A stretch of 64,000 nt of DNA from Octopus vulgaris. Lineage: Eukaryota. The position numbers and the translations under genes are program-made. The notes under the pieces are model-generated. The model made no database searches. It was not told where the DNA came from and saw nothing but the letters and a program-made list of their open reading frames with translations. Shown piece by piece: positions 4,245-40,461 of this stretch (its first letter is position 1; each line of letters begins with the position of its first letter). The stretch lies in the NCBI GenBank assembly GCA_951406725.2, contig OX597818.1, forward strand, positions 102,796,001-102,860,000. Reading direction: 5' to 3'.

Positions 4245-4640
4245 AACAATTGCAGCGTGGAAGGTATTTGTGAGCCATTTAAGAAACAGACAAAAGCCGT
4301 TCGATTCACTTCAACATTTAAGTTTAATTCGTCAAAATATTTTCGTTGCTTTAAGACCACGACCTGTTCACTGACAAAAATCCATGCTGACAAAAATCCG
4401 TGCTGACAAAATCTGTGCTGACAAAAGTCCGAGATGCAGCATGGATTTTTGTCAGTGAACAGGTCGCGGTCTTAAAGCGACGAAAATATTTTGACAAATT
4501 AAACTTAAATGTTGAAGTGAATCGAACGGCTTTTGTGTGTTTCTTAAATGGCTTACAAACACCTTCCACGCTGCAATTGTTTTCGTTTCAGCACAGGATC
4601 TCAGATCAAATCACTTGCTTTGCAAGTACATCTCCATAAT
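4245..4640 (+). mobile_element. Non-autonomous Penelope-like inverted-repeat element with a hammerhead motif in each arm
   Basis: Arms 4245-4389 and 4437-4581; spacer of ~15-16 bp tandem tgctgacaaaaatcc units; unpaired 3' extension; 13-bp TSD-like aatatcat(a/g)ataa at 4234-4246 and 4638-4650. Confidence 0.75.
4448..4498 (+). ncRNA. Minimal hammerhead ribozyme, G3-C8 core variant (second copy 4331-4378 on the minus strand)
   Basis: tttgtca-GTGAACA-g-gtcgc(ggtcttaaa)gcgac-GAAA-a(ta)tTT-tgacaaa: stems I, II and III all pair. Confidence 0.65.
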
Positions 4641-5809
4641 ATCATGATAATTGGTTAGAAAAAGACATATGGCAATAAAAGCGAAGCAAACGCTCACACG
4701 CACACATACGAAGGAAACCAGTGTGTTATACACATATTCAGTGTGACAACCCGACGAGGTTTATACAAACATACGCCGTGACTAAAGTGAGAGAGCAGAT
4801 ACAGGAATGAAAAAGGAAGAAACGACTCTTGCAGGGAAATCATTGAAAAGACCACATATGTGTGCTGAATTAATACATTGACAAACCAATCAATTGATTA
4901 ATTAATTAATTAATTAATTAATTGCTTTGTCAAAGTATTTCACCATATTGATTAATTAATTATAAAACGGCAAAGAACAATAAATATCTGTATGTGTTAT
5001 TGTGTGTGTATTTGTGTGTGTGATTGTATTTCTGTGTATAAGTGAGTGTGCATGTACGTGTGGTGACGGGGGGTGGAGCAATCGTGCGTGTGTTGTTTTT
5101 ATGTGAACGTGTGTGTGAGTGAGTTTGTGCGTGTGTATGTATGTCAGTGATTTAATTGGCAGAATGACCTCAAAATGCAATATTTGTTTCAATACATAGT
5201 TTCACGTCAAGAAATTACCCCACACCCACTCGACAAAAACACCCCAAAAGACAAGACGCAAACGATCAAGGGCAAGTGTTTCTGTGCGTATACATATATA
5301 TACACATACACATATACACACAGATATATATATATATATATATATATATATATATATATACGTACATACCCTCATATATGTATGCACACATACACATATG
5401 CATACACACACATACACACACACATATATATATATATATATATATACATACATATGTATATGTACATACATATATACACACATATATTTACATATATATA
5501 ACTACATATATATATATATATATACATATATATATATACAAAAATACACCCAGATATATACAAACATATATATATATATATATATATATATATATATATG
5601 CACACATACCCATACACATATATACTTATATACGTATATATCTATACCTATAGAGTTACACTCACACTCACACACCACACATACACACTTACACACACAC
5701 GCACATGCATATATATAGGAAACGTCAGTTTCTTCAGTACACTGCTTTCAAGAGCTCTTCTAACTTCATTTTTTTTTTACCATATTCTTCAGATAAATAG
5801 CATCACACA

Positions 5810-5940
5810 TTATGCTGATTCAGCAAAGGAAAAAGCAAGCTGTTAGTCGTTGATTTAAAAGCCCAGCATTGTGCTACAGAAGTAGCTCACTTCCTGAAAG
5901 TTGCCAGAACCTTCATTGTCTAAGTTCGAAGGCAGATGGA
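5810..5940 (+). pseudogene. Tc1/mariner-superfamily transposase N-terminal remnant
   Basis: Broken translation LKAQHCATEVAHFLKVARTFIV*VRR resembles a transposase helix-turn-helix. Confidence 0.35.
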
Positions 5941-6009
5941 AGGTGGAGTGCAGATGAAAGGTGGAGCGCGGGAATATTAGTTCGTTCAAAGTACTATTTC
6001 CGAATATTC

Positions 6010-6486
6010 TGTTCTACACTAGGCACAAGGCCCGAAATTTGTGGGGAGGGGACCAGTCGATCAGATCGACTCCAGTACACAACTAGTATTTAATCTATCG
6101 ACCCCGAAAGGATGGAAGGCAAAGTCGACCTAGGCAGAATTTGAACTCAGAACGTAAAGACAGCACCCGGCGTGCTAACGTTTCTTATTTCTTTACTGCC
6201 CATAAGGGGCTACATACAGAGTGGACAAACAAGGACAGACAAACGGATTAAGTCGATTATATCGACCCCAGTGCGTGACTGGTACTTATTTAATCGACCC
6301 CGAAAGGATGAAAGGCAAAGTCGACCTCGGCGGAATTTGAACTCTGAACATAACACCAGACGAAATACCTATTTCTTTACTACCCACAAGGGGCTAAACA
6401 CAGAGAGGACAAACAAGGACAGACAAACGGATTAAGTCGGTTATATCGACACCAGTGCGTAACTGGTACTTATTTAATCGACCCTG
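6010..6486 (-). mobile_element. SINE family B, tandem multimer
   Basis: Repeated cgaccccgaaaggatgaaaggcaaagtcgacc and gacaaacggattaagtcg units. Confidence 0.88.
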
Positions 6487-6589
6487 AAACAGAATTAATT
6501 CTACAGCTAAAGCATCATGTAACCTGCAAGACAGCAACTTGTTATTTAACTTTGGAATATTGCAATTCCTTTGCTATCAACCCACAATG

Positions 6590-38480: not shown

Positions 38481-38502
38481 AGTGATAACAACAATAATCA
38501 TT

Positions 38503-38668
38503 TCTACTGACGCACGAGGCCTGAAATTTGGGGTAGGGGACTTCTCGATTACATCGATCCCAGTGTTTTACTGGTACTTAATTTATCGACCCCAAAAGGA
38601 TGAATGGGGCAGTCGACCTCGGCGGAATTTGAACTCAAAACGTAGCGACGGGCGAAAATACTGCTGAG
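38503..38668 (-). mobile_element. SINE family B
   Basis: ctggtacttaatttatcgaccccaaaaggatgaa...ggcggaatttgaactc. Confidence 0.75.
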
Positions 38669-39130
38669 CATATCCTCCAGCGTAGAAATGATTCGACCGC
38701 CTCATAGCCTCAATATCATCATCATTATCAAAATAATAAAAAATAATAATAATAATAATAATAATAATAATAATAATAATTATTATTATTATTATTATTA
38801 TTATTATTATTATTATTATTATTATTATTAATATTATTATTATTATTATTATTATTATTATTATTATAAAAATAATAATAATAATAACGATAATAATAAT
38901 AGTGTGTGTTTGCGCGCGCGTCAAACAAAACTATGAGAAGAGAAATAATTCGAAATGGCCAGAAGGATGTATTTCAGCAACAAAGACGAAGTATCTATCT
39001 AATAACACAGCGTGGCACATTGGGGAAGTATCTTCTACTATAGCCTCGGGTCAACCAAAGCCTTGTGAGTGGATTTGGTAGACGGAAACTGAAAGAAGCC
39101 CGTCGTATATATATATATATACATATATAT

Positions 39131-39655
39131 ATAATAGAAATATTAAAATTACTAAGTCTCTCTAAAGGAGATTACGGCAGCGTTACTGGATATTAATAGT
39201 TATCGCCAAACTAATATGGCAGTCCATAAATATAAGACTAAAGTTGTCGCTGATTAGCTCCAAGAGGCTATCGCCTCTAGCTAGCTATATGACACACGAA
39301 CCTGCGTCCATTGCAACCTTCGAACAGGGGAGGTCAGCCGCTTTACCTTGCTGGTCAGACATCTGCAGACTTGTTTCAGGGTTGTTGCCCTTTATCAATG
39401 CAGCGTAGTCAGATCCAGCAGGTGTCGCTACCGACCGTCTGTTCGAAGATTTTATTTACCTAGTTACAGTGGAATACATCCACTTGTTTTCAATAATAGA
39501 AATATTAAAATTACTAAGTCTCTCGAAGGTTGTAATGGACGCAGGCTCGTGTGTCATATAGCTAGCTAGAGACGATGGCCTCTTGGAGCTAATCAGCGAC
39601 AGCTTTAGTCTTATATTTATGGACTGCCATATTCGTTTGGCGATGACTATTAATA
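39131..39655 (-). mobile_element. Penelope-like element with direct and inverted repeats
   Basis: Direct repeat ataatagaaatattaaaattactaagtctctc at ~39131 and ~39493; inverted arms 39191-39322 and 39523-39655. Confidence 0.8.
39363..39403 (-). ncRNA. Minimal hammerhead ribozyme, U3-A8 core variant
   Basis: ctgca-TTGATAA-aggg(caacaa)ccct-GAAA-c(aa)gTC-tgcag: perfect stems I and II, GUC triplet. Confidence 0.7.
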
Positions 39656-40413
39656 TATATATATATATATATGTGTGTGTGTGTGTGTGTGTGTGTGTGT
39701 GTGTGTATGTATGTATATATGTATGTATGTATGTATGTAAGTATTTATATATGTGTTTGCGAGTGTGTATGCTTGTGTGTCTGTGTTTGTCACTCCACCA
39801 TCGCTTGACAACTGATGCTGGTGTGTTTACGTCCTGGTAACGCTAGCGATTCTGCAAAAGAGACCGATAAAGTAAGTACTAGGCTTACAAAGAATAAGCC
39901 CTGGGGATCGATTTGTTCGACTAAAGGTGGTGCTCCAGCATGGCCGCAGTCAAATGACGGAAACAAGTCTAAAAATAAAAGAATAAAAACAAGATTTCTG
40001 AGACCATCTCCGATTTGAGAGAGTGCAGAAGAAAAGGTCAATTGCGACTGAAATTAAAAGGTGAACAATCTCAAGAATCAAGATTTCTTCAGAATTGACG
40101 TGTATTAAGGAAAAGTCAGTGTCATATAGAGATATCTATTACACAACGAGCATCAAACAAGAAACCGTTTATGACGATGACAAGGACTCGTCTTACGTTG
40201 AAAAATCATTTCATTTTTTCTCAACGTATTGATTACTCACACAATTATGCTATCAACATCCGTTTTGTGTGTTGGGGGTGCGTGCGTGTGTGTGAGTGAG
40301 TGAATGTGTGTATAGAGAGAGAGAGAGAGAGAGAGAGAGAGGCAAACAAATAAAAATATTTAAACCATAGTCATTACATAGTCATTACTGATATAATATC
40401 AGACTTTCGGTTT

Positions 40414-40461
40414 CTGTCGCTGAAGAGGAGATAACCACTCCGAAATGCATGTATCCAATAG
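40414..40461 (+). ncRNA. Minimal hammerhead ribozyme, canonical core
   Basis: ctgtcg-CTGAAGA-ggag(ataacca)ctcc-GAAA-tgcatgta-TC-caatag; stem I pairs at 5 of 6 positions. Confidence 0.65.

Follow-up and report, generated by a model that had tools for sequence, protein, structure and literature searches.

The window analysed here, a 64,000-nucleotide stretch of the Octopus vulgaris genome (GCA_951406725.2, contig OX597818.1, positions 102,796,001 to 102,860,000, forward strand), carries copies of seven families of repeats with hammerhead ribozyme motifs. We consider it likely, with a probability of about 0.8 judged from sequence, that all seven were inserted by enzymes of Penelope-like elements (PLEs): two would be terminal repeats of protein-coding PLEs, four would be protein-free closed units that likely arose from circular or multimeric RNA, and one would be a short linear element. 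The majority sequence of each family fits a minimal type I hammerhead with a palindromic stem III. A first-pass annotation of this DNA had proposed that Penelope-type hammerhead elements form a diverse population with a high copy number, and this is borne out by seven families with 229 to 2,536 first-look candidates each.

RESULTS

Seven hammerhead families in the window

The families are named after the window coordinates at which the annotation had placed their motifs, and each coordinate does fall on a hammerhead-shaped motif, at the 5′ strand of its stem I or, for minus-strand motifs, at the 3′ strand. The window has 36% GC and is rich in microsatellites; the genome comprises 2.8 Gb in 227 contigs. 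As the annotation had advised, we searched with a descriptor open to any Watson-Crick pair at positions 3 and 8. The strict type I form, with an optional extra base after A9, a stem II of at least 3 bp, a near-palindromic stem III and a stem I, gave four matches (cores 4455+, 10132+, 39398− and 40420+), all of them among the seven noted sites, whereas 20 local shuffles averaged 0.3 matches and reached 2 at most. When one core mismatch was tolerated, there were six matches versus a shuffle mean of 4.1, which is within the shuffle range. The presence of a hammerhead at all seven sites is therefore upheld copy by copy at 4448, 10126, 39363 and 40414, but at 15435, 18208 and 35161 the individual copies are decayed or truncated and do not match the strict descriptor, and only their family majorities make these sites hammerheads. 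In an Rfam scan of the window with 353 matches, the 150 listed were microsatellite-driven microRNA matches and included no hammerhead. An eighth candidate at 58118-58078 (minus strand), with a U3-G8 core, matched the relaxed descriptor only, had no relative among the loci compared and was not counted.

The seven units are unrelated, as had been claimed (with word size 7, none of the pairwise comparisons reached E<0.01), and five lie in inverted structures, the exceptions being 35161, which is repeated directly, and 40414, of which the window has a single fragment. The reported association with (TA)n was also seen, at one end of the 15435, 35161 and 39363 copies. For each family the best 40 first-look candidates were scored, out of 652 (4448), 229 (10126), 944 (15435), 2,536 (18208), 1,200 (35161), 1,922 (39363) and 656 (40414), and 25-30 loci, designated by L numbers, were retrieved.

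Cores and stems

A core with a Watson-Crick 3-8 pair, GAAA and U16.1-H17 is complete in six family majorities, and the 15435 majority has C4. Intact cores were found in 25/25 copies of 4448, 28/30 of 39363, 23/25 of 35161, 18/30 of 40414, 15/25 of 18208 and 14/25 of 10126; conservation in these six sets is inflated because the BLAST query included the hammerhead. The family majorities have a short palindromic helix III, a stem I of at least 4 bp and a stem II, which is weak in 35161. The G10.1-C11.1 pair is kept in four of the seven families (4448, 10126, 18208 and 40414); A-U takes its place in 39363 and 15435, and A-A in 35161.

The annotation had described the motifs as differing in their cores. 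This is true at the family level for G3-C8 in 4448, U3-A8 in 39363 and C4 in 15435, but the window copies of 18208 and 35161 are decayed or truncated members of canonical families, so these two variants are damage to single copies. An older 4448 subfamily (2,457 candidates) still has G3-C8 as its majority. Of 16 readable 15435 cores, seven start with CCGA and two with CTGA, and C4 is the likely source state because most of the other cores fit CpG decay from CCGA. A search limited to CUGANGA does, as predicted, miss such variants (G3-C8 in 25/25 copies of 4448, U3-A8 in 39363, the C4 majority in 15435), and these cores show the blind spots of standard hammerhead searches. In the five families tested, the stem III palindrome formed no hairpin (0 kcal/mol) and paired between molecules at −0.2 to −13.4 kcal/mol. 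Since a palindromic stem III cannot fold alone, cleavage is predicted only as a dimer or with the aid of protein.

Family 18208 and its Poseidon-type parent

Sequence comparisons indicate that family 18208 forms the terminal repeat at the 3′ end of a coding PLE, which we take to be Poseidon-type from its motifs. The window copy consists of two back-to-back arms of this 3′ end (17781..18343) flanked by a target duplication of 13 bp (at 17769 and 18344). A tRNA-like head with an A box and a B box (18009..18063, plus strand), shortened by an internal deletion in the window copy, is followed by (AAT)n, and an inverted head lies at about 17935-18004. The hammerhead motif (18209..18254, plus strand) carries two core substitutions, at positions 3 and 5; in the family the core is canonical, A9 is followed by an additional A and the palindrome measures 4 nt.

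A Poseidon-type endonuclease end stood upstream in 3/25 loci selected by the hammerhead, and a search with that end gave 2,261 candidates. Among 30 loci selected by the open reading frame (ORF), which include the query locus and three loci that look like segmental duplicates, the ORF was followed by the head in 22 and by the hammerhead body in 23. The parent has reverse transcriptase (RT) motifs (RVT_1, E 2e-10) and the endonuclease end; no intact ORF was found. Between the ORF and the hammerhead lie the 75-nt head and then (AAT)n.

Both boxes were present in 28/30 head-selected copies, 34 nt apart where displayed. The longest T run in the one unit inspected was 3, with no T4 terminator; ARAGORN called a tRNA in 0/25 loci, and the Rfam tRNA model had no match in 5 loci. 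Twelve of the 25 hammerhead-selected copies reach the start of the head; eight of these stop within 12 nt, one stops at −21 and three continue into the ORF. In the head-selected copies 28/30 stop in the same 12 nt, where the query itself begins. This pile-up of 5′ ends suggests that the head is likely the start of the RNA, probably transcribed by RNA polymerase III (Pol III), and a head in this role would make many 18208 copies resemble short interspersed nuclear elements (SINEs). Alternatively, a palindrome at the head could favour fold-back there and produce the same pile-up. The head was found without the hammerhead body in 7/30 head-selected copies, six of them with a short triplet tail. 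Loci L252, L253, L265, L266, L268, L270 and L276 (around 1500-1600) show such a head on its own, in most cases with a short (AAT)n tail.

Family 15435 and its Hydra-type parent

Family 15435 is, on the same kind of evidence, the pseudo-long terminal repeat (pLTR) of a Hydra-type family of endonuclease-bearing (EN+) PLEs. The window has the 3′ terminal repeat on the minus strand (15179..15434), which ends at (TA)n and contains a decayed hammerhead at about 15290-15325, and a short inverted arm on the plus strand (15435..15470) whose hammerhead (core 15439-15445) is also decayed, with a 2-nt deletion in stem III and a broken stem I. The family motif has an 8-bp stem I and a 3-bp stem II with a GNRA cap. 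Positions 15182-15430 share 74-75% identity (E 3e-33) with the pLTR of an intact Hydra-type element whose frame has 727 codons, and a related ORF end was located upstream in sense in 3/25 loci.

An ORF fragment beside a 39363 copy in L036, used as query, returned 11,212 candidates, and in many of them an open frame of 727 codons is flanked by direct repeats that carry a hammerhead. In this young, intact family (L216:2163-4343, minus strand; also L217-L219; >11,000 candidates) the pLTRs are >99% identical, and the hammerhead has a 2-bp, GNRA-capped stem II closed by an A-A mismatch that recalls the A-A of family 35161. The L216 protein carries RWK, DKT, CxxC and CxH motifs, read by eye against the list in PMC8557442; the second cysteine of the CxCX5C linker is replaced, and it is present in the related L350 protein. 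The latter represents a second intact Hydra-type family (L350:1526-4465; also L349 and L351) with 970-980 codons, an asparagine-rich linker and 37% identity to the first; by eye, its pLTR contains a hammerhead-like core whose loop II spans about 60 nt. Neither of the two proteins gave a Pfam match, nor did a PDB sequence search give a significant one, so the Hydra-type identity rests on the motifs and on an Atlas feature search, in which neighbours of the Hydra-type protein carry HTH_animal, GIY-YIG and RVT_1.

These two parents bear on what had been claimed about coding capacity. All window copies are ORF-less, as described, but families 15435 and 18208 are the ends of coding PLEs; the term non-autonomous suits 4448, 10126, 35161, 39363 and 40414, but not 15435, which matches the pLTR of an intact element, or 18208, which follows an ORF. 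The search for linked RT and GIY-YIG ORFs that the annotation had suggested succeeded for 15435 and 18208, and no linked ORF in sense was found at the retrieved loci of the other five families.

Closed units in four families

Copies of 39363, 35161, 40414 and 10126 run from their own 3′ part into their own 5′ part, with unit lengths of 362 nt, 558 nt, about 340-348 nt and about 520-550 nt (549 in unit-level tests), respectively. Copies longer than one unit made up 27/30, 17/25, 11/30 and 2/25. The four units are ORF-less and tandem, have one type I hammerhead per unit and a GC content of 0.33-0.42. Folded as circles, the 39363, 35161 and 10126 units gave z scores of −6.8, −6.6 and −4.7 against 20 shuffles.

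In family 10126 (9134..10494) a minus arm (9134-9521) and a plus arm (10079-10494) are separated by SINE-like repeats. Its hammerhead (10126..10189, plus strand; predicted cut after 10183) has a canonical core, a long stem II, an 8-nt palindrome and A17. The window copy has one stem I mismatch, and the minus-arm copy (core 9316) lacks GAAA. Among 25 copies, a compensatory change in stem I from U-A to C-G was seen, with six copies of each form, eight mismatched and five unmatched. In L087 and L109 a gene-like region with frames of 213-260 codons adjoins a 10126-family insertion.

The first 35161 copy (34912..35209, minus strand; predicted cut after 35167) lies in (TA)n and has a long 3′ end; its 5′ truncation removes everything before core U4, including the 5′ strand of stem I. 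The second, direct copy (35344..35575, minus strand) has the same truncation point and a short 3′ end. Family 39363 (39131..39656) is also embedded in (TA)n, with a minus arm of 1.1 units and a long 3′ end (39131-39527) and a plus arm with a short 3′ end (39523-39656). Its hammerhead (39363..39403, minus strand; predicted cut after 39368) has a U3-A8 core, a 4-bp stem II, a 5-bp stem I and, in the window copy, a single change in the stem III palindrome. Family 40414 is represented by a lone fragment of an old closed unit (40404..40630, plus strand), with a canonical core in the hammerhead at 40414-40461 (predicted cut after 40455) and a stem III palindrome that is 10 nt long in the family.

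The 39363 unit is covered by contigs of four sequencing runs of guessed RNA origin, one of which returns on itself by one unit; because tandem DNA gives an identical pattern, these contigs are evidence neither for nor against expression or circles. None of the four families has an RT or endonuclease ORF of its own, nor was sense PLE coding linked to them in 25-30 loci each. An ORF fragment 1 kb upstream of a 39363 copy in L039 was dismissed as unrelated, with other repeats intervening. At 20 further Hydra-like ORF loci no pLTR matched any of the five ORF-less families.

Family 4448, a short linear element

Family 4448 is an ORF-less element of 213 nt with a sharp 5′ end. The window holds two back-to-back arms (4245..4639), a minus arm with the short 3′ end (4245-4389) and a plus arm with the long 3′ end and a tail (4428-4639), flanked by near-identical 13-bp sequences at 4234 and 4638. 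The plus-strand hammerhead (4448..4498; predicted cut after 4491) is the same as the family majority: G3-C8, an extra G after A9, a 5-bp stem II, a 6-nt palindrome in stem III and a 7-bp stem I. A second one on the minus strand extends from the core at 4371 to the predicted cut at 4335 and has one stem II mismatch. Hydra and Poseidon queries found no linked sense PLE ORF in 25 + 30 loci, Neptune, Nematis and Naiad not being queried; the parent may belong to one of these other PLE clades. We also observed a third copy at window 20064-20214 (minus strand), which consists of the 3′ part only and ends at (TA)n. From their sequences, 4448 and the four closed-unit families look and behave like PLE cargo rather than autonomous PLEs.

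Insertion signature

The 3′ ends of copies fall into two clusters in six families and into one in 40414, 44-305 nt past the predicted cut, the longer cluster being limited by the reference length in three families. Modes were at 177-178 and 226-237 in 39363, 191-200 and 287-294 in 35161, and 89-92 and 140-149 in 4448, and the window arms of 4448, like those of 39363, end at the two different sites. By analogy with described elements, the two-cluster ends are the PLE tail. The 3′ end was followed by (TA)n in 23/25 copies of 35161, 21/30 of 39363 and 14/25 each of 10126 and 15435, and more rarely in 4448 (7/25), 40414 (2/30) and 18208 (0/25). Family 40414 has few inverted copies.

At two loci (L036:1891-2708 and L286:6206-7535) the 5′ end of a ring abuts an inverted, 5′-truncated Hydra-type ORF with no microsatellite spacer, and Hydra copies are joined in this way to themselves in 11/25 assessable loci. 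These junctions point to Hydra enzymes as possible movers of the rings. Two further neighbourhoods, of 35161 with a PLE in L287 and of 4448 with a PLE in L204, were rejected as co-insertions because (TA)n separates the parts.

DISCUSSION

Proposed mechanism and alternatives

It seems that the seven families share one route of insertion. Transcription would run through the element, and the minimal hammerhead is predicted to cut as a dimer or with protein help; in the ring families, two cuts would free a monomer, which would circularise. Judging from copy ends, a PLE RT/GIY-YIG protein would nick AT-rich or (TA)n DNA, and reverse transcription would begin 44-305 nt past the cut at either of two fixed internal positions, which would account for the two 3′ ends observed. 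Priming on both strands would produce the back-to-back arms, and reading round the ring the copies of more than one unit. After insertion, copies decay.

A rather unlikely alternative shares the insertion by PLE enzymes and takes the hammerheads as passengers, with the closed units formed by linear read-through of tandem arrays and no RNA circle. It gains from the anole PLE protein, for which hammerhead mutants insert normally and no reads end at the cut (PMC11167929), from the existence of long tandem arrays that could yield multimers, from copy ends that map away from the cut site, and from the 8/25 copies of 18208 with A3 opposite G8, a combination that should disable the core. Against it, seven unrelated sequences have kept the full motif, with compensatory changes, three of the rings self-pair as circles far beyond shuffles, and circles have been seen on northern blots in coral, mussel and axolotl (PMC7229834). 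That all seven are dedicated non-autonomous retrozymes is improbable and is refuted for two of them: although the window copies lack ORFs and five families lack linked sense PLE coding at their 25-30 loci each, 18208 follows the Poseidon-type ORF in both the ORF-selected and the hammerhead-selected loci, and 15435 has both Hydra-type ORF ends upstream and the match to an intact element's pLTR. Chance folds in palindromes resembling miniature inverted-repeat transposable elements and in AT-rich repeats could be invoked from the three window copies that fail the strict descriptor, from the relaxed counts at chance level and from the lack of an Rfam hammerhead among the matches listed. This explanation is scarcely credible and largely refuted by the family alignments, in which the majority sequences fit a hammerhead better than do the copies in the window; strict matches exceed the shuffles, and the inverted arms are unequal in length, unlike fixed terminal repeats.

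Several observations weigh against the preferred reading, that PLE enzymes inserted all seven families and that hammerhead-processed circular or multimeric RNA gave rise to the rings. The A3 cores and the anole mutants count here as well, as does a preprint in which 8/9 predicted retrozyme dimers were uncleaved (10.64898/2026.07.22.740005). In the otherwise canonical 35161 core an A-A mismatch replaces the usual G10.1-C11.1, the 40414 unit folds like shuffles (z 0.1, one old copy folded), the ring-to-Hydra junctions amount to one case per family, and no autonomous partner was found for 4448, 35161 and 40414 with queries that left aside Neptune, Nematis and Naiad. Six of the seven copy sets were picked by BLAST with a hammerhead-containing query, and in the unbiased 15435 set core identity was 0.94 versus 0.90 elsewhere. 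The copy sets also contain the locus of the window itself and, in some cases, loci that overlap within a single array.

We tentatively go one step further, to a scenario that we hold to be possible though not probable as a whole. A Poseidon-type element would have taken a tRNA-like Pol III promoter into its terminal repeat and would spawn SINE-like hammerhead elements that depend on a PLE enzyme rather than on one from a LINE, and Hydra-clade enzymes would copy protein-free rings. The rare 5′-to-5′ junctions between ring and Hydra would then record one enzyme dimer priming two RNAs at one break, and so would name the mobiliser, and a family of >3,000 candidates would run on a natural G3-C8 core.

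Other features of the window

A mariner-type transposase frame of 269 codons lies at window 32960-33769 (minus strand; Pfam Transposase_1, E 2e-24). Remnants of long interspersed nuclear elements (LINEs) were found at 20521-20934 (minus strand) and 55146-55936 (plus strand), recognised by a zf-RVT match (E 2e-6) and, by eye, by the likeness of their frames to a LINE C-terminus. Positions 881-1536, 9524-9978, 14263-14664, 54065-54349 and others hold a SINE-like repeat of very high abundance, interrupted by (TA)n and often present as inverted pairs; tandem repeats of 182-184 bp occur at 30308-30674 and 49447-49959. Further inverted repeats at 60555-60684, 2760-3160 and 45471-46361 have no hammerhead-descriptor match; the first of them has a two-armed relative in L028.

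Comparison with known systems

It has been reported by Cervera and De la Peña (2014; PMC4209133) that single genomes hold many minimal hammerhead families, mostly as solo truncated copies, and that minimal PLE hammerheads show weak dimer cleavage. The octopus families agree with the metazoan PLE hammerheads described there in having pairs on opposite strands at a distance of 100-700 bp, a palindromic helix III, an additional base between positions 9 and 10.1, a U3-A8 core and predicted dimer activity; they differ in the natural G3-C8 and the C4 majority, not met in the available parts of that paper, and in keeping G10.1-C11.1 in four of seven families. Natural U3-A8 and a viroid U4C were reported by Perreault et al. 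(2011; PMC3088659), and an engineered G3/C8 swap partly rescues a PLE hammerhead (PMC11167929). We claim no novelty for the G3-C8 core, which may be in print.

The closed units resemble the animal non-LTR (long terminal repeat) retrozymes, which also lack protein-coding capacity, form tandem units that each carry a single type I hammerhead, have less than 50% GC and self-pair. These retrozymes are reported in molluscs, and both an origin from PLEs and mobilisation by them have been proposed (PMC7229834; 10.64898/2026.07.22.740005); the 2026 preprint of Li, Clavereau and Pollet (10.64898/2026.07.22.740005) derives them from pLTRs. Unlike those retrozymes, the octopus rings have minimal PLE-type hammerheads and occur mostly as dispersed 1-1.5-mers with PLE tails and inverted arms. 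In the anole PLE studied by Frangieh et al. (2024; PMC11167929), the tail comes from two internal RT start sites, and both DNA strands are cut and extended. The hammerhead pLTR, 5′ truncation, inverted 5′ copy, optional tail and (TA)n targets are shared with Hydra and Penelope/Poseidon EN+ PLEs (Craig et al., 2021, PMC8557442; PMC11167929), and the RWK and DKT motifs of the Hydra-type protein with the Hydra clade (PMC8557442). In contrast to described EN+ PLEs, tails here are about 25-100 nt rather than 30-40 nt, and the Poseidon-type pLTR holds a tRNA-like head.

Schistosomes offer the nearest counterpart to such a head, in the SM-alpha and Sj-alpha elements, whose promoter is used by Pol III. 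As in these SINE-like elements (PMC6765202), a promoter-like segment in 18208 is followed by a hammerhead in a short repeat; the head-plus-hammerhead of 18208 differs from them in that it physically forms the 3′ terminus of a Poseidon-type coding element and carries PLE insertion scars. No title or abstract opening in the literature consulted concerned a tRNA-headed PLE repeat or cephalopod hammerheads, and the word 'ribozyme' is absent from the main text of PMC13282606, supplements lying outside this scope.

The seven families are further members of the published PLE hammerhead and retrozyme picture. What the octopus adds is the coexistence in one genome of young rings (copies 96-99% identical), mapped RT starts and intact Hydra-type ORFs (727 and 980 codons), so that the proposed copying of retrozyme circles by PLEs becomes directly testable.

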